A stretch of DNA of 14,548 nt from the NCBI GenBank assembly GCA_038257035.1, contig JBBSJT010000058.1, forward strand, positions 1-14,548. The letters are read 5' to 3'. A program made the position numbers and the translations under genes. This document shows, piece after piece, positions 4,410 through 14,409 of the stretch. Positions within the stretch are counted from its first letter, which is position 1, and every line of letters begins with the position of its first letter. The DNA comes from Chlamydiia bacterium (GTDB lineage Bacteria; Chlamydiota; Chlamydiia; Chlamydiales; Parachlamydiaceae). The notes under the pieces are model-generated. The model had not been told where the DNA came from. It did no database searches and saw nothing but the letters and a program-made list of their open reading frames with translations.

Positions 4410-7136
4410 TTGAATCATGAACTTGTAGCGACTTACAGAATTCAATTGAATAAAGAATTTAATTTTAAGGATGCCGAAGAAATTATTCCTTATTTAAAAA
4501 AATTAGGGGTTAGCCATCTTTATTCATCCCCTATTCTTACAGCAAAAGAAAAAAGTACACATGGGTATGATGTCGTGGATCATGGTAAATTAAATCCGGA
4601 ACTTGGAAGTTATGAAGAGTTTGAAACATTCATAAAAAAATTACATGAATCAAACTTGTCGCTTCTTTTAGATATTGTTCCAAATCACATCTACATTGGG
4701 AATCTTGAGAATAAGTGGTGGCGAGATGTACTTAAAAATGGAAAAAAATCCTCATATGCAGCCTTTTTTGATATCGATTGGCACCCATTAAAAGATGCAT
4801 TCCATGAAAAAATTTATTTGCCACTACTAGATGAACCTTTTGGTAATTTTCTTGAAAATCAAAAAATTAAGCTTGTGTTTCAGGATGGTGAATTTTTTAT
4901 TCAGCTTTATACTTTTTTAATTCCTACGGATCCAAAAACAGCACATTTAGTGCTAGACCCACTTTTAGAGGAATTTAATAAGGTGTTCGAGCCTTCAAAC
5001 CCCTATTTACAAGAGTTCAAATCCATATTGCATGCTGAGCAATTCATTGAAAAATCAGATCACTTGTTTAAAAGATGCCCTAAGATGCTTGACATTCTTA
5101 CAAGCCACTTGAACACATTAAATGGCATTAAAGGAAATCCTGCGAGCTTTAATGATTTAGAAAAATTTTTGAAATCGCAGCATTATCGTTTATTTTACTG
5201 GAAAGTAGCAAATGATGAAATTAATTATCGAAGATTTTTTGATATTGTTGAATATGCTGCCATACGTATGGAAAAAGAAAAAGTGTTTGAAGAAACTCAC
5301 CATTTAATTTTAGATTTTATTAAGAAAGGTTTTATACAAGGTCTTCGTGTGGATCATATAGATGGACTCTATGAGCCGGAAAAATATCTTCATAAGTTAA
5401 AAGAAACAAATATTTCTTATTTAATTGTCGAAAAAATTTTATTAGGCAACGAGGTGTTAAGAAAATCGTGGCCTGTTAACGGCACGGTGGGTTATGATTT
5501 TTTAAATAGTTTAAATCAGCTTTTTATTTACAGCGATAATAAATCATCTTTTTTAAACTTATATAAAGAATTTACAGAAATTAACACCTTGCCAAGCCGC
5601 GTCAAGCATGATGCCAAACGCTTTATAATTCTTACTTCGTTAGCAAGTGAACTCAATTTATTAACACGAAAGTTAAATCATATCACAAATAATCATCGCC
5701 ATTCTTGCGATTTTTCCTATGAAAATTTAAAAAAAGCTTTAGGCGAAATCCTTGTTTATTTTCCCGTTTACCGCAGTTACATAAATGCTTCAAAGGGTGA
5801 AATAACTAAAGAAGACTCTCGATACATTGTAGCAGCAATTGCAAATGCGAAACGTTTCGATAAAAGCATTGACCCAGCAATTTATACCTTCATACAAAAC
5901 CTTTTTCTTTTAGAACGGATAAGCAATGATAAAGATTACTTAGAAAAATGTAATGACTTTGTTATGCACTTTCAACAGATCACAAGTCCGGTCATGGCAA
6001 AGGGTGTAGAAGATACCGCATTTTATCGGTATTTTCCATTGGCATCTGTTAATGAAGTAGGGAGTGAGATGGACTCTTTTGGAATGTCGTCTGAAACCTT
6101 TCATAAAAAAAACTTAGATAAGTTCGAATTTTATCCAAGTTCTCTTTTAGCATCTACCACACATGATACAAAACGAAGCGAAGACGTCCGAGCAAGAATG
6201 AATGCATTATCTGAAATACCTGATCAATGGAAACAGGGTTTATGGGATTGGAATCGGGTTAATGAACCTCTCAAGATTCAAACTGAAAATTATTTAATTC
6301 CAGATAAAAATGAAGAATATTTTATTTACGAAACACTTATTGGTACTTGGCCATTTGAGGGAATAGATGAAACTTATATTGGGCGTATACAGAATTATAT
6401 TGCTAAATCTATTAAAGAATCAAAAATTCATGAAAGCTGGATAAATCCGGATGAAGAGTATAGCAATAACATTCAATTATTTATTAAAAATATTTTAAAC
6501 AATAAAGATTTTTTAAATAAATTCACCCCTTTAAAGGATTTTATTCAAAATATGGGGATGTTAAACTCTCTTTCTCAAGTTTTGATTAAGCTAACATCGC
6601 CAGGCATTCCTGATATTTACCAGGGTAATGAAATTTGGGATTTTAGCTTAGTTGATCCTGATAACAGACGTCCAGTTGATTTTATTAAAAGAAATAAAAT
6701 GATAGATCGTTTAGAAAATGAAAATTTGCAAGCATTTTTAGATAATCCAGAAGATGGCATGATTAAGTTGTTTATTACAAAAAAAACTTTAGAATTCAGA
6801 AATAAAGAAAAAGAGCTATTTTCATTGGGTAATTACATTCCTTTAAATGTACAAGGGAAAACCCCTGAACATTGTATTGCCTTTGCACGCCTATTTGAAA
6901 ATAGAATCTGTTTGATTTTTGCAGCTAAATTCTTTTCATTTTTCATGGAATCTTTTAATAAATATAAAGATGAAAATTTTTGGAATTCACATTTTTTAAC
7001 AATTCCAATGGAAATGGTTGGATTGCCTTTTAAGAATATTTTTACCAATGAAATTCATGTATTTTCTGAACAGAAAATCCCACTTCAAGATTTGTTTAAA
7101 GTCATGCCTTTTGCTTTGCTCACCTCCACCACTTAA
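4410..7136 (+). CDS. treY: Malto-oligosyltrehalose synthase (GH13)
   Basis: 908 aa, TTG start 7 bp after the upstream stop; ATYRIQL, STHGYDVVD, LDIVPNH, INYRRFFD, GLRVDHIDGL, VEKIL, MAKGVEDTAFYRY, THDTKRSEDVRAR, PGIPDIYQG, SLVDPDNRRPVD. Confidence 0.95.
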   Translation: MNHELVATYRIQLNKEFNFKDAEEIIPYLKKLGVSHLYSSPILTAKEKSTHGYDVVDHGKLNPELGSYEEFETFIKKLHESNLSLLLDIVPNHIYIGNLENKWWRDVLKNGKKSSYAAFFDIDWHPLKDAFHEKIYLPLLDEPFGNFLENQKIKLVFQDGEFFIQLYTFLIPTDPKTAHLVLDPLLEEFNKVFEPSNPYLQEFKSILHAEQFIEKSDHLFKRCPKMLDILTSHLNTLNGIKGNPASFNDLEKFLKSQHYRLFYWKVANDEINYRRFFDIVEYAAIRMEKEKVFEETHHLILDFIKKGFIQGLRVDHIDGLYEPEKYLHKLKETNISYLIVEKILLGNEVLRKSWPVNGTVGYDFLNSLNQLFIYSDNKSSFLNLYKEFTEINTLPSRVKHDAKRFIILTSLASELNLLTRKLNHITNNHRHSCDFSYENLKKALGEILVYFPVYRSYINASKGEITKEDSRYIVAAIANAKRFDKSIDPAIYTFIQNLFLLERISNDKDYLEKCNDFVMHFQQITSPVMAKGVEDTAFYRYFPLASVNEVGSEMDSFGMSSETFHKKNLDKFEFYPSSLLASTTHDTKRSEDVRARMNALSEIPDQWKQGLWDWNRVNEPLKIQTENYLIPDKNEEYFIYETLIGTWPFEGIDETYIGRIQNYIAKSIKESKIHESWINPDEEYSNNIQLFIKNILNNKDFLNKFTPLKDFIQNMGMLNSLSQVLIKLTSPGIPDIYQGNEIWDFSLVDPDNRRPVDFIKRNKMIDRLENENLQAFLDNPEDGMIKLFITKKTLEFRNKEKELFSLGNYIPLNVQGKTPEHCIAFARLFENRICLIFAAKFFSFFMESFNKYKDENFWNSHFLTIPMEMVGLPFKNIFTNEIHVFSEQKIPLQDLFKVMPFALLTSTT

Positions 7137-7323
7137 AAGAAAGTTAATCCAATTTGGAGTACATTATGGATAAATTGAAAAACAGCTAAGACAAATCCTT
7201 AAATGCAAATATATACTGATGCTACTTGGAAGTGAAAATTTGCAATGTTCATAAAACTACTTATTATAACATCTTCGATTTTTTACAGGATATGCAGGAT
7301 CGCTACGCGACAAAGTCGCTTTA

Positions 7324-7598
7324 GCGCATATGCATTAAACTAAGAAGAGTAATTATAAAGCAGGCCTACAGCCTGCGACCACAACACCTTGAACCTCTAG
7401 GCATTGCCCTAGGCTGTCAAAAACCAGGGCTTTGCCCTGAAAAATCGTCTTTTAAGGCTGAAGGCCTGAGTTATAAAAGCCTAGGGCACCGCCCTAGGTA
7501 TGGTGAGGAATAACCACGCAGGCTGTAGGCCTGCATTATAATCAATCTTAAGATCTTTTATTTAAGCAATTTGAAGCCTTAGCTTAATGCGTATGCGC
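7324..7598. mobile_element. Second MITE-like insertion with 21-bp terminal inverted repeats and flanking direct repeat
   Basis: 7324-7344 gcgcatatgcattaaactaag versus 7578-7598 cttagcttaatgcgtatgcgc (19/21 inverted match). Flanked by TTTA on both sides (7320-7323, 7599-7602); the direct repeat extends to cgctttagcg (7317-7326, 7596-7605), so the exact boundary is ambiguous. Confidence 0.7.
7352..7542. repeat. REP/BIME-like cluster of short GC-rich hairpins, two units in inverted orientation
   Basis: Outer arms 7352-7377 and 7517-7542 match 25/26 inverted (gcaggcctacagcctgc core). Internal hairpins ctaggcattgccctag, cagggctttgccctg, aggctgaaggcct and cctagggcaccgccctagg. Same modules as 13279-13474. 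Confidence 0.88.
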
Positions 7599-7687
7599 TT
7601 TAGCGATCCTGCATATCCTGTAAAAAATCAAAAAATGATATAGATTGTAATGATCTAAATTTTCAAATTGAAGTAGAACCAGTATAT

Positions 7688-9709
7688 TTAAAAGGCTTTT
7701 AAAAGGATACTGCTGTAAGGGGCTATTTTAAAGAGATTATTCTCTACTTTTACTTCTTTCCCATCTTCAAAGAAATCTTCCGGTGATTTATTACCGGTTA
7801 CAATCACTTGATGCCAATTTTTATTATCCTGGCAAGGTGGAAGAACTACATCCCGATCTTCATTTGAGGCATTAAAAGCAATATAAAAAACAGGCTCATT
7901 TTTTTGTTTTTCAGAATTCAGTGTAAAGGCAACAAAATGATCTTTTTCCTCCCATTTAGGTTGATTTGGCACTAATCCATGCCATGAAATATGATTTTCT
8001 TTTAAATGTTTTTCAGGTTTTAAAAGAGGATTTTTGGCTTTAAAATGAATTAGAAAACGATAAAAATTAAAAAAGTCTTGGTTTTCTTGGATTTTATCCC
8101 ATAAAAACCAATTTATTTCATTATCTTGGGTCCACGAATTATTATTACCTTTTTTGGTGTGTCCATATTCATCCCCCATAAACAGCATGGGGATCCCTGG
8201 AGTAACCATCAGGGCTAATAGAAAATTGCGCATTTGTTTTTTTCTTAGATTTAGTATGTTTTTATCTTCTGTTTCCCCTTCAACACCACAATTCCAACTT
8301 TCGTTATTATCTAGGCCATCTTTGTTGTTTTCACCATTATTTAAATTATGTTTTTCATTATAACTGACTAAATCAGCTAAGTTAAAACCATCATGTGTTA
8401 CAATGTAATTAACGCTTGATGTTGGGATATTGGGATATATATTAAAATTGCCTGAAATCGCTTCTGAAAAGCTTTTTTTAGATCCTTTTGTGCCTTTTAT
8501 AAAATTCCTAATAGCTGATTGGTATTTTCCATTCCATTCAGACCAATGAGGATTTAAAGCGGCAAAATATCCCACTTGATAAAGCCCGACGGCATCCCAT
8601 GGTTCTGCAATGAGCTTAACATGAGATAAAATAGGATCTTCGGATATAAATTCTAATAAAGGAGGTCTTTCGATGGGTCCACCATCAAGTCCTCTTGAAA
8701 AAATGGATGCCAAGTCAAAACGAAAGCCATCAATGTGGCATTCTAAAACATAGTAACGCATGGCACTCATTAATAATTCCAACGAAACAGGATGATTGCA
8801 TTTAAAAGTATTTCCGCAACCAGAATAATTTTGGTAGGTATTATTTGGGCCTAAATGATAATAAGCAAGGGGGTTAAATGCTTTATAAGATTGTACTGGT
8901 CCTTTTTCATTCCCTTCAGAAGTGTGGTTCAAGACCATGTCAAGAATGATTTCGATGCCATTTTTGTGCAATTCTTTCACTAAATTTTTAAATTCAGTTA
9001 ATGCTTGATCACCTTCAGATTTACTTGAATAACGATTCATTAAACTAAAAAAATTAACTGTAGAATAACCAAAATAGTTATGATTTTTTTTTCCGGTTTC
9101 AGGATTAAATTGGGTCACATCTTCTTCACAAAATTCTTGTATCGGCATAAGTTCTATCGCGTTAATTCCAAGATCTTTCAAATAGGGAATTTTTTCGATG
9201 ATGCCTTGAAAGGTTCCTTTAGCACTTACATTACTAGAAAAATGCTTAGTGAACCCTCTGACATGCATTTCATAAATAATTAAATCATTTTTAGCAAGAT
9301 TGAGGGGTTTATCTCCTTGCCAATCAAATTGATGTGCTACCACTTTTCCAATAGGATTATATTTAAAATCTTGCCTAGATTCATTTTGCCATAAGGGCTC
9401 ACTTATAATTAATTTTGCATAGGGATCTAAAACAGATGCAAAACTTCCATCTTTGTTGACCACTTTGTAGTTATATCCAAAATTTAAAGGTAGATCTTTA
9501 ACAAAGATATGCCAAACATCCCCGGTTTTATTCACATCCGGATTGAAAGTAAGAGTTGAAAAAGGTAATTCTTTGTTTGCTTCTTGAGCTTTTTCATGGA
9601 ATAAAAGGAGGGTAAGTTCTTGAATGTCTTTTCCATATACGGCAAAATTAACGCCACTTTCTTTTACAGTTGCACCAAAAGGAAAACAATCACCTGCTTC
9701 AACTTCCAT
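7688..9709 (-). CDS. glgX: Glycogen debranching enzyme / isoamylase (GH13)
   Basis: PFGA...GVNFAVY, IIYEMHVRGFT, NYFGYST, DMVLNHT, NYSGCGNT, DGFRFDLAS, IAEPWD, THDGF, SWNCGVEG, GIPMLFMGDE. Start moved from 9775 to the ATG at 9709 (MEVEAGDCFPFGA), which has GGTG upstream and fits the usual GlgX N-terminus. Confidence 0.93.
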   Translation of the reverse strand: MEVEAGDCFPFGATVKESGVNFAVYGKDIQELTLLLFHEKAQEANKELPFSTLTFNPDVNKTGDVWHIFVKDLPLNFGYNYKVVNKDGSFASVLDPYAKLIISEPLWQNESRQDFKYNPIGKVVAHQFDWQGDKPLNLAKNDLIIYEMHVRGFTKHFSSNVSAKGTFQGIIEKIPYLKDLGINAIELMPIQEFCEEDVTQFNPETGKKNHNYFGYSTVNFFSLMNRYSSKSEGDQALTEFKNLVKELHKNGIEIILDMVLNHTSEGNEKGPVQSYKAFNPLAYYHLGPNNTYQNYSGCGNTFKCNHPVSLELLMSAMRYYVLECHIDGFRFDLASIFSRGLDGGPIERPPLLEFISEDPILSHVKLIAEPWDAVGLYQVGYFAALNPHWSEWNGKYQSAIRNFIKGTKGSKKSFSEAISGNFNIYPNIPTSSVNYIVTHDGFNLADLVSYNEKHNLNNGENNKDGLDNNESWNCGVEGETEDKNILNLRKKQMRNFLLALMVTPGIPMLFMGDEYGHTKKGNNNSWTQDNEINWFLWDKIQENQDFFNFYRFLIHFKAKNPLLKPEKHLKENHISWHGLVPNQPKWEEKDHFVAFTLNSEKQKNEPVFYIAFNASNEDRDVVLPPCQDNKNWHQVIVTGNKSPEDFFEDGKEVKVENNLFKIAPYSSILLKAF

Positions 9710-9745
9710 TTTTACACCAAAAAAATTTAAGTATTTAAAAAAATT

Positions 9746-9775
9746 TTTATAACAGTACTTTTCATAACGATGCAA
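9746..9775 (-). promoter_or_regulatory. Candidate sigma70-type promoter for glgX
   Basis: Minus strand TTGCAT-N18-TATAAA with TGn before the -10; 36 bp upstream of the ATG at 9709. The AT-rich background lowers specificity. Confidence 0.35.
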
Positions 9776-12454: not shown

Positions 12455-12477
12455 AGTTGTACATCTCTCAATTTTTA

Positions 12478-12559
12478 GGGTCAGGCTTTACAATATTACA
12501 GTTTTCGTTAATTTTTATATCTTTATGAAAAAAAACTGTCATATTGTAAAGCCTGACCC
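12478..12559. repeat. REPIN-like 28-bp inverted repeat between convergent genes; may act as a bidirectional terminator
   Basis: 12478-12505 gggtcaggctttacaatattacagtttt versus 12532-12559 aaaactgtcatattgtaaagcctgaccc: 27/28 inverted match with a 26-nt AT-rich loop. Confidence 0.85.
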
Positions 12560-12579
12560 CACAATATTTTCTAAGAATC

Positions 12580-13248: not shown

Positions 13249-13278
13249 AATATGCCCTTATAAATTCAGTCTGAATTA

Positions 13279-13474
13279 TCAGGGCAAAGCCCTGGTTTAT
13301 AAAAGCCTAGGGCAACGCCCTAGGTACGATATTGCTAAATATGCAGGCTGTAGGCCTGCGTTATTCCCATAAATTGCTTTATATAGTTATAACGCAGGCC
13401 TACAGCCTGCCATTTTTTTTATAATATACCTAGGGCGCTGCCCTAGGCTTTTATAAACCAGGGCGTTGCCCTGA
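13279..13474. repeat. REP/BIME-like composite inverted doublet (196 bp)
   Basis: Arms 13279-13326 and 13427-13474 match 46/48 inverted; 16-nt unrelated spacers; 13343-13364 and 13389-13410 match 22/22 inverted; 24-nt central loop. Confidence 0.92.
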
Positions 13475-13526
13475 AAACCAGTAATCAACTCAATCATGGT
13501 ATATAGTTTATAAAAAAAAATGTCTA

Positions 13527-14189
13527 TTAATTTAAGATTTGGAGGTAAACATCGGCCTCTCCCCAAGTGAATACAGCTGGAAATTGTTTGACCAGGGTAA
13601 AAATAGGGTCGTCACAATAATCGTTAAGGGCATAACTTACAGTTACAATTTTTGTGCCGGCAGGACATTTTTGAAACTTCTCGATTAATTTTTCGATGAA
13701 TTCGGTATCATAACATGTGCCATACAAATAAAAAAAAGTTACCCCTTCAAAACTTGTTTCCAACATATCAGCATCTCTAAATTCCAAACCTTGAACATTA
13801 AATAAATTTTTTATTTTATTAGCGCGCTCGATGAAGAGAGGAACATACTCAATACCGACAACTTGGCAACCAACAAAAGCATTGAGCCAAAAACAACACC
13901 TGCCACGTCCACAGCCCAATTCAAAGACTGTATCTTGTTTTTTTATAGTGCAATCTATGGCTATTTGATCCATGGTTGTCAGGGGTGTTTCACCATAAAG
14001 ATAAACTTCTTTTTCCCCTCGTTCTAATAGGAAATTTTTAGCTATCCTAAATGGATTTTGAAATAGATAAAGTAGCAATAGCGAAAAATCTACTTTTGCA
14101 AACGAAATTTTTTTGTAATATTTGAAAACGACACGTACATATTCGACAAAATTTCTCTTTTGAACTTTAAAGTAGAGTATCGGTTCCAT
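13527..14189 (-). CDS. Class I SAM-dependent methyltransferase, DOT1-like
   Basis: YGET-x21-ELGCGRG motif I, VVGIE post-I, GTKIVT. Likely start is the ATG at 14189 (AAGGCG upstream); the ORF-track start at 14207 overlaps a MITE end. Confidence 0.8.
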   Translation of the reverse strand: MEPILYFKVQKRNFVEYVRVVFKYYKKISFAKVDFSLLLLYLFQNPFRIAKNFLLERGEKEVYLYGETPLTTMDQIAIDCTIKKQDTVFELGCGRGRCCFWLNAFVGCQVVGIEYVPLFIERANKIKNLFNVQGLEFRDADMLETSFEGVTFFYLYGTCYDTEFIEKLIEKFQKCPAGTKIVTVSYALNDYCDDPIFTLVKQFPAVFTWGEADVYLQILN

Positions 14190-14206
14190 AATCGCCTTAT
14201 AAAGCA

Positions 14207-14409
14207 TATACCGATTCTACTTCAACCTGAAATTTTACGCTGATCCCTCAGAAGACATTGCAATAAGATTTTTTTACCAGTGAGGCAGTGAGAGCAACAT
14301 GAGGACAGTGAGGGGCTCTGAGTTCTAAACCTCTCACTGTCCTCATTTTGCTCTCACTGCCTCACTGGTAAAAAATTCAAAAGTTTTCTCTTCCTGCAGC
14401 ACCAGTCTT
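14207..14409. mobile_element. Second copy of the ERIC-like MITE in opposite orientation, one end degenerate, carrying a different hairpin
   Basis: Reverse complement of 14206-14237 matches 7656-7687 at 27/32. 14381-14409 matches the reverse complement of 7212-7241 at 22/30 with one gap. Fills most of the mgtE-methyltransferase gap. Confidence 0.65.
14270..14375. repeat. Long hairpin with 46-bp arms and internal CAGTGAG repeats
   Basis: 14270-14315 versus 14330-14375: 44/46 inverted match with a 14-nt loop; three CAGTGAG copies per arm; downstream of the mgtE stop. Confidence 0.92.

Follow-up and report, generated by a model that had tools for sequence, protein, structure and literature searches.

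The stretch of DNA considered here (the window, 14,548 nucleotides; contig C58 of a 2.37-Mb Chlamydiia bacterium assembly with 36% G+C and 210 contigs) carries at 7212–7686 a 475-bp nest of four concentric inverted-repeat layers, called L1 to L4 from the outside inwards. The nest lies between a treY-like gene and a glgX-type gene. The former (4410–7136, plus strand) is predicted from the list of open reading frames (ORFs) to encode an alpha-amylase family protein of 908 amino acids (Pfam Alpha-amylase, E = 3e-21) and ends 75 nt ahead of the nest; the latter (7688–9775, minus strand, 695 amino acids), assigned as an isoamylase gene from the ORF list and a domain match, is convergent with it, and its TAA stop codon lies 1 nt beyond the right end of L1 (7686–7690). 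Both ORFs fit the initial annotation of the locus, which had named treY and glgX as neighbours of the nest and had proposed that several families of non-autonomous elements insert successively into one another, with older palindromes as their preferred or selectively safe targets.

L1 begins, preceded by TA at 7210–7211, with a left terminal inverted repeat of 27 nt (7212–7238, plus strand), which agrees with the pattern of its family without mismatch and is found in the arm list, and continues as a left linker of the “Y” type (7239–7275, plus); the ten genomic copies of this linker lead on their inner side to an L2 core in eight cases, to an S core in one and to a contig edge in one. The left arm of L2 (7276–7305, plus) consists of a T-run followed by an arm of CAGGAT-type words, and the genome contains 129 copies of its 18-nt motif. 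A GCGAC-AAA-GTCGC mini-hairpin (7307–7319, plus) is an L2 module situated near the apex of minimal L2 hairpins, as it is also present in uninterrupted L2 of contigs C116, C22, C3, C39, C33, and C8. L3 is framed by two copies of TTTA (7320–7323 and 7599–7602, plus), each directly adjoining one of its 21-nt terminal inverted repeats; the left one (7324–7344, plus) deviates from the family pattern by two mismatches, the right one (7578–7598, minus) by none, and the latter is preceded by a right linker of the long form (7542–7577, plus), to which there are 58-nt matches in C43, C141, C4, and C46. Innermost lies L4 (7353–7541, without strand, ca. 189 bp), a cluster of hairpins resembling repetitive extragenic palindromic (REP) elements, in the order H, degenerate P, Q, H′, P, H and with TTATAA ends; a match to the Rfam model Acido-Lenti-1 (7454–7498) falls inside it. 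On the far side follow the right arm of L2 (7601–7629, minus), recognized by its pairing with the left arm, the right linker of L1, which is of the “X” type (7630–7659, plus; one 58-nt match, 95%, in C194), and the right terminal inverted repeat of L1 (7660–7686, minus; two mismatches), which stops 1 nt short of the glgX stop codon.

The four concentric pairs reported initially are real: a repeat search of 7100–7800 returns arms at 7211–7241 and 7657–7687 (31 nt, 81% complementary), 7274–7305 and 7601–7632 (32 nt, 97%; the 29 perfect bases noticed before lie within this L2 pair), 7345–7377 and 7517–7549 (33 nt, 91%), and 7400–7443 and 7450–7493 (44 nt, 73%), together with a direct repeat, CGCTTTAGCG, starting at 7317 and again at 7596; the ends of L3 pair at 19 of 21 positions. 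Folded as single-stranded DNA, the segment 7205–7692 forms one long hairpin of −124.3 kcal/mol, versus −49.4 ± 4.3 kcal/mol for dinucleotide shuffles of it (z = −17.3; 0 of 100 as stable), and the inverted repeats that BLAST detects in 7100–7800 with a minimum of 20 nt and 80% identity number three, versus none in each of 100 shuffles. Because the shuffles match neither the folding energy nor the number of inverted repeats, the concentric arrangement is not a product of chance.

The ends of the layers were searched in the genome of the window and in 72 further genomes from its family, allowing up to three mismatches for L1 (27 nt), one for the arm motif of L2 (18 nt), and two each for L3 (20 nt) and L4 (24 nt); hairpin modules were mapped by blastn-short, and reversed-pattern controls for all four ends gave 0 everywhere. 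The L1 end has 65 copies in the genome of the window and one marginal hit in one of the 72 others; the L2 motif has 129 copies and is present in 26 of the 72, the L3 end 36 copies (18 of 72), and the L4 end 66 copies (10 of 72). All four occur together in the genome of the window only. These numbers and the solo copies described below bear out the claim that the layers are different families found apart from each other; further copies of L2 and L3 thus exist in quantity (129 motifs and 36 ends), while a search for the 475 bp as one fixed unit elsewhere returned only partial matches. The 18-nt L2 motif is absent from both genomes of the same genus (G001 and G002) and present 76–171 times in G005, G048, and G060, which belong to three other genera; such a patchy distribution fits bursts, loss or transfer.

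L3 is, by its ends, classed as a miniature transposable element with inverted-repeat ends (MITE) that shares its termini with an insertion sequence of the IS4 family; the copy in the window measures 275 bp. Six complete copies were found (268–302 bp, all non-coding), four of which are bordered by perfect 4-bp duplications (GAAT, GAAT, TACC, and the TTTA of the window), one by a duplication agreeing in three of four bases, and one by none. In each clear case the duplicated bases form the loop of a small CGC...GCG palindrome, and CGC plus 4 nt precedes 31 of 37 L3 ends; since 17 different 4-mers are found there, these targets reflect many separate insertion events. When L3 with its content and one TTTA are removed from the window, 74 bp remain, which match an uninterrupted 75-bp L2 hairpin (C8:2895–2969) in 71 of 76 columns. 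Duplication, uninterrupted paralog and target rule together demonstrate, at the level of sequence, that L3 with L4 inserted into L2. The targets of L3 elsewhere include L2 hairpins and the REPs of two other transposase systems of the Y1 type. The initial annotation had suggested looking for empty versions of the outer three layers; the one for L2 exists in this 75-bp hairpin, L1 yielded two degenerate versions of about 100 bp, and none was found for L3.

The target rule also gives the nesting a mechanistic ground. The motif CGC-N4-GCG is present at 406 sites of the genome versus 81 expected from base composition; 338 of them lie outside long frames, and 310 of these 338 fall in sequence of which three or more other copies exist. 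L3 is therefore found in nests because, in a genome of 36% G+C, repeats supply nearly all of its targets. This is also visible in the 40-nt sequences flanking the elements on the outside, which are themselves repeated in 24 of 34 cases for L3 (p = 9e-10) and in 56 of 142 for L2 (p = 2e-6), versus 76 of 400 random intergenic 40-mers; the figure for L1 (11 of 56) equals this background, and that for S-type hairpins (5 of 89) lies below it. Nesting thus exceeds chance for L3 and L2, and L1 shows no preference for repeats; for L3 the suggested preference for palindromes amounts to a sequence rule, the required motif being nearly confined to GC-rich repeats in an AT-rich genome, rather than to a liking for palindromes as such.

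A candidate for the autonomous relative of L3 is present in G075, where a 1,869-bp element with L3 ends and a CTTT duplication encodes a transposase of 466 amino acids (NCBIfam transpos_IS4_1, 205.6 bits, cut-off 115; Pfam DDE_Tnp_1, 90.6 bits). The same-genus genome G001 holds a broken copy of an element of this type, and in the genome of the window an L3-type end together with the last 34 codons of a G075-like gene (43% identity over 28 residues, pairwise E = 2e-7) is found at the ends of contigs C63, C4, and C170. These three contigs (C63:14033–14155, C4:53086–53208, and C170:2759–2835) end in one common insertion-sequence terminus, and further clusters sit at contig edges, among them 39 with a lone L2 arm in one count and 47 consisting of L2 only in another. 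As many contigs break in repeats, three of them at the same terminus, the repeat content is under-assembled.

L4 is, on the evidence of its hairpins, a REP-like cluster belonging to a Y1 transposase system similar to IS200 and to the REP-associated tyrosine transposases (RAYTs). Its unit of ca. 173–190 bp consists of the hairpin types H, P, and Q between TTATAA ends, with H containing GTAG. On contig C105, the blocks Q-P-H and H-P-Q-Q flank, in inverted orientation, an intact single-copy Y1 gene (C105:2280–2621) of 150 amino acids, whose predicted translation has an HVH motif and a tyrosine within YINNQ (SYINNQKEHH); the protein passes the transpos_IS200 model (62.6 bits, cut-off 55), no relative of it was found by sequence in the PDB, and identity of the gene to the six other Y1 loci of the genome does not exceed 47%. 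The seven IS200/RAYT-like loci (C105, C29, C119, C7, C25, C48, and C68) each have their own family of inverted GC-rich hairpins, several of them tagged with GTAG; those on C119, C7, and C25 are interrupted, and in the protein of C48 a Q replaces the second His of the HUH motif. L4 is by no means restricted to L3: 20 of 26 internal clusters of at least three L4 hairpins are without L3 ends, five have both and one has a single end. Three of eight full-size solo copies inspected show decayed L3-like ends. In the window itself, the separate L4 copy claimed for its right part is confirmed at 13276–13477 (without strand); it lacks L3 ends, and its modules have the order found around the Y1 gene of C105 (Q-P-H / H-P-Q), opposite to that in the nest (H-P-Q / x-P-H). 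L3, on the other hand, regularly contains L4, as 17 of 20 L3 ends of at least 81% identity reach an H hairpin within 50 nt, while the other three are degenerate, carry an internal deletion or are truncated where a contig stops; in this genome L3 is thus always L3 plus L4.

The Acido-Lenti-1 match on the minus strand of the nest (37.6 versus a gathering score of 37) could be taken to mark an RNA gene. The same model, however, matches 77 places of the genome (23 of them above the gathering score), among which are the sequences on either side of the Y1 genes of C105 and C7; what it detects here is therefore a DNA repeat, namely a pair of REP-like hairpins, and the RNA-gene reading was rejected.

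L2 is assigned, by the build of its arms, to the gene-less hairpins of a class of cassettes encoding GxxExxY proteins of the PD-(D/E)XK type. Complete L2 hairpins number 38, most of them 128–177 bp long and with a core of their own, and in their arms CAGGAT-type words recur about every 8 nt, in some cases as part of tandem 16-nt units. In 33 hairpins both flanks are readable; six of these lie between two L1 ends, 12 adjoin a single L1 end, and 15 adjoin none. In the hairpin C1:19247–19408, the 16-nt unit is present once in the left arm and in four tandem copies in the right; from this inequality it would seem that L2 arms also grow by tandem duplication. An intrinsic terminator was considered for the L2 stem and rejected, because a T-run precedes and an A-run follows the hairpin on both strands, which is the reverse of the order in a terminator.

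The assignment rests on other genomes. G005 has a gene with a PDDEXK_3 domain (Pfam, 131.9 bits) that is also recognized by the GxxExxY model TIGR04256 and lies between two L2 motifs spaced 570 bp apart; seven of eight GxxExxY gene loci from five genomes are flanked by inverted repeats of 24–184 nt, and at four of the eight examined, those of G005, G060, G035, and G048 (four other genera), the arms are of the L2 type (48–184 nt, 87–94% complementary). The GxxExxY proteins reach 134.7–134.8 bits on TIGR04256, and the D, E-x-K, and G-E-Y residues are shared by all seven sequences compared. The arrangement is general: inverted repeats with at least 20 matched bases flank 41 of 69 GxxExxY loci drawn from many phyla, versus 3 of 69 when mismatched flanks are used. 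Five of the genomes concerned contain the word pattern of the arms 16–36 times, versus 0–1 for the control, and the spacings of its pairs are both gene-sized and miniature. A literature search retrieved no published description of hairpin-armed GxxExxY cassettes; the papers inspected do no more than name the GxxExxY / PDDEXK_3 family, and PMC3424549 gives its function as unknown. In the genome of the window, one GxxExxY gene (C7:1142–1471) lies inside a hairpin (C7:about 925–1590) whose arms are built of octamer words of the G type (ACCGCGAAG), and another, at C17:14832–15340, adjoins a hairpin of the K type (RCGCAAAG words). Five types of words, B (that of L2), S, G, R, and K, are common throughout the genome behind a T-run, with a total of some 300 arms.

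L1, finally, is a shell, recognized by its 27-nt terminal inverted repeats and near-exclusive to the genome of the window. Six other complete copies (196–290 bp) all read TA-TATACTG...CAGTATA-TA; the copy in the window is the sole complete one with TT instead of TA on its right flank. As cargo, these six carry K-type hairpins (three), an R-type hairpin, REPs of the Y1 system of C48, and L2, respectively, and 48 of 61 L1 ends reach one of these cores within 90 nt. The separate L1 copy noticed in the window was recovered as well, with its end at 14206–14237; the element extends to 14409 (14206–14409, without strand), its right end is degenerate, and its core is a different one, an S-type hairpin (CAGTGAGR words) at 14267–14378. 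Within 14205–14237, this end, at 14206, overlaps the predicted ATG (14207–14205, minus strand) of a methyltransferase ORF (13527–14207), whose start codon it may have supplied or displaced. A further palindromic family (GGGTCAGGCTTTACA...) with 40-nt arms (85%) is present at 12473–12564 of the window, and it also adjoins L1 ends on C196 and C103.

The left L1 linker of the window and the L2 next to it recur on C171, C24, C116, and C22 with 93–100% identity across the junction, and L2 enclosing L3 enclosing L4 is found at three internal loci and ten contig ends. We therefore consider the nest a stack of four unrelated selfish-repeat families, each tied to a different kind of enzyme, that was probably built here by two insertions, a reading to which we would give a probability of roughly 0.7. 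As L1 with L2 and L3 with L4 recur as composites, two events suffice for the locus. In the former composite L2 would be the core of L1, in the latter L4 would be the cargo of L3. The L1+L2 composite would have landed at a TA just past the stop codon of glgX, between the convergent genes; thereafter, as the duplicated TTTA shows, the L3+L4 composite entered CGC-TTTA-GCG next to the apex of L2. The stack would have persisted because convergent gaps tolerate insertions: elements occupy 42 of 211 convergent gaps, versus 49 of 831 tandem and 10 of 230 divergent ones, and none of 396 element marks falls inside a predicted gene (by crude, ORF-based gene calls), which fits a tolerance of insertions at gene ends.

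The initial proposal, three or four successive and independent insertions at this very locus, each into an existing palindrome, shares with the two-insertion reading the entry of L3 (with L4) into an older L2 palindrome, which its TTTA duplication and the C8 paralog bear out. It also agrees with the occurrence of every layer apart from the others, with the targeting of hairpin repeats by L3, and with the fact that the same L1 linker holds either an L2 or an S core at one position (Y, eight and one; X, 15 and one; Z, three and one), as independent entry of the cores would have it. Four independent steps are nevertheless improbable at this locus, since L3 is never seen without L4 in the genome of the window and the junction of L1 linker and L2 recurs elsewhere, so that ready-made composites are the more economical explanation. 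We regard it as equally improbable that the whole nest was built elsewhere and arrived in a single step as a 475-bp unit by means of its L1 ends. These ends do bound all layers, with TA beside them just as in the other six complete copies, and a second nest of four layers exists at C4:14355–14967; yet that nest differs throughout (L1 linkers W and X, another L2 variant, a deleted left end of L3, and a duplicated L4), and being assembled from different variants it indicates that the nest is not one copied unit. The particular nest of the window has no second copy; the best partial matches are found on C46 (91% over 7317–7596), C141 (over 7361–7627), and C4, and the nearest copies of L3+L4, which are 90–92% identical, sit inside differently built L2 hairpins.

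That the structure is no mobile DNA at all but a single fold-back or a functional element, such as a bidirectional terminator or a structured RNA, is very improbable indeed. The one very stable hairpin, its location between convergent genes and the Acido-Lenti-1 match at the gathering score would agree with such a role, but the layers are met again singly and in different combinations, the complementarity of their arms varies from 73% to 97%, the order of T-run and A-run in L2 is opposite to that of an intrinsic terminator, and the 77 places matched by Acido-Lenti-1 include both flanks of two Y1 genes. No pointer to a host function for the nest emerged among the results of this analysis.

Several observations weigh against the two-insertion reading or against the enzymes assigned in it. 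Event order and number at the locus are deduced from paralogs, because there is no orthologous empty site to compare: a search of genome contigs for loci related to TreY yielded no relative, the best TreY match among 30 relatives is 50% identical, both genomes of the same genus are without treY, and their GlgX and a DUF6629 protein are only 50–54% identical to those of the window, so that intergenic DNA is not alignable. No public contig and no read spans the nest, and one soil-metagenome run contains 64% of the words of 6400–8500. (A joint 7321>7603 in metagenome data, with sides of 24 nt and a C in between, was considered as an allele of the locus and discarded, as it is exactly the sequence of the C8 paralog.) All repeat counts are lower bounds, since the assembly of 210 contigs has many breaks inside repeats. 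That L2 entered L1, and L4 entered L3, is presumed, with no duplication at either boundary; the absence of L3 without L4 from the genome of the window, held above against stepwise insertion, likewise leaves L4 without an empty host element. The mobility of L1, L2, and L4 in general is suggested by their copy patterns. When L1 is compared with MITEs of the IS630/Tc1-mariner type, which duplicate TA, all seven complete copies read TA-TACTG...CAGTA-TA, but a TA duplication of L1 is inseparable from the palindromic TATA of its ends. Only two core-less copies of L1 are present (on C14 and C120, both degenerate and ca. 100 bp in length); for an empty shell of the L1 subtype seen in the nest, a search among core-less T-run/A-run hairpins yielded just short or unconvincing candidates, namely one of 17 bp at C50:2639 and, at C30:5415, a minimal L2 of 49 bp. 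No gene-sized interior that might encode a transposase was found between L1 ends, the sole pair among 61 ends that is wider than 613 bp lying 11 kb apart, and no search for transposase families was made.

Similar doubts attach to the other enzymes. Neither of the two GxxExxY genes found in the fragmented assembly of the window has arms of the L2 type, and mobilization of L2 by a GxxExxY nuclease remains putative. The Y1 protein of C105 fails the RAYT model REP_Tyr_transpos (23.8 bits, cut-off 80). A body of the IS4-type transposase was not found in the assembly of the window with the G075 protein as query, and the 4-bp duplication of L3 is short for a family in which 8–13 bp are usual; its parent may belong to a subgroup which the NCBIfam IS4 model does not separate.

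It is possible, if for now the weaker bet, that the nest is the record of a small selfish-DNA ecosystem which subsists for the most part on its own members. Four classes of elements with four types of enzymes would meet at one site, namely a putative TA-inserting transposase, a GxxExxY PD-(D/E)XK nuclease, an IS4-type DDE transposase, and a Y1 transposase of the IS200/RAYT type; the GC-rich hairpins of some classes would provide nearly all CGC-N4-GCG landing sites of another, shells would carry the hairpins of others, and L2 would represent a nuclease-driven class not found in print. If so, a REP cluster could be spread by a DDE transposase and a hairpin of the GxxExxY type by the transposase of L1, and transport as cargo in MITE shells could explain how repeats spread where their own enzyme is absent or broken. 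Nesting by way of a target motif nearly confined to other repeats may hold for other AT-rich genomes as well. The host is an unexpected one, a chlamydia-like genome crowded with selfish repeats, in which about 30% of random intergenic 40-mers are repeated; it has three TLC nucleotide transporters, of which none is found in any of 14 control genomes, and a sub-threshold OmcB-type match, which fit an intracellular, amoeba-type chlamydia. In practical terms the repeats fragment the assembly, many of whose 210 contigs end in them.

The ingredients of the nest have counterparts in known systems. REP and REPIN elements with their RAYT transposases (Y1, HUH) have been described (PMC3116915, PMC2817692, PMC3333891), and L4 resembles them in being composed of GC-rich hairpins in self-folding inverted clusters, of which dozens are gene-less while inverted hairpins flank a single-copy Y1 gene. 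It differs in that its unit has three different hairpins per side rather than one REP, that NCBIfam models place the linked Y1 protein with IS200 instead of RAYT, that the chlamydia-like host has at least seven Y1 loci each with hairpins of its own, and that many copies are cargo inside a DDE-type MITE. REP sequences serve as the target of IS1397. They are also targeted by ISPpu9, ISPpu10, ISPsy8, ISPa11, ISRm19, and ISRm22 (Tobes and Pareja 2006, PMC1525189). Like these insertion sequences, L3 inserts specifically into GC-rich palindromic repeats and makes them insertion hot spots; unlike them, the inserter is mostly a MITE of 275 bp and not a full insertion sequence, it is of the IS4 family according to NCBIfam, it follows the explicit target formula CGC-N4-GCG and duplicates 4 bp, and hairpins other than REPs (L2) are hit as well. 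L2 has in common with GxxExxY cassettes that its arms are made of short words about every 8 nt and that in four other genera a GxxExxY gene is bordered by the same 18-nt motif, but it lies here mostly within shells of the L1 type.

In Nostoc punctiforme, very small repeats reportedly occur chiefly within other repeats, MITEs and tandem heptamer arrays (Elhai et al. 2008 are said to have described them), although organisms and sequences there are different from those of the window nest. REP dimers within longer palindromes are known from Anabaena variabilis, Thermomicrobium roseum, and Halothiobacillus neapolitanus (Di Nocera et al. 2013, PMC3733652), and there, too, palindromic repeats regularly lie within other palindromic repeats. 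The hierarchy of which the initial annotation knew no description thus has one-level nests as forerunners in print (PMC3733652, section 7; PMC1525189); the REP dimers are presented in that section at one level and with the mechanism left open, while the nest of the window has four levels, and for one boundary among them a duplication and a target rule supply the explanation. What is new, therefore, is the stack of four classes, the explicit target rule behind the nesting, and MITE shells with the hairpins of another system as cargo, whereas each ingredient singly is known or has been noted already.

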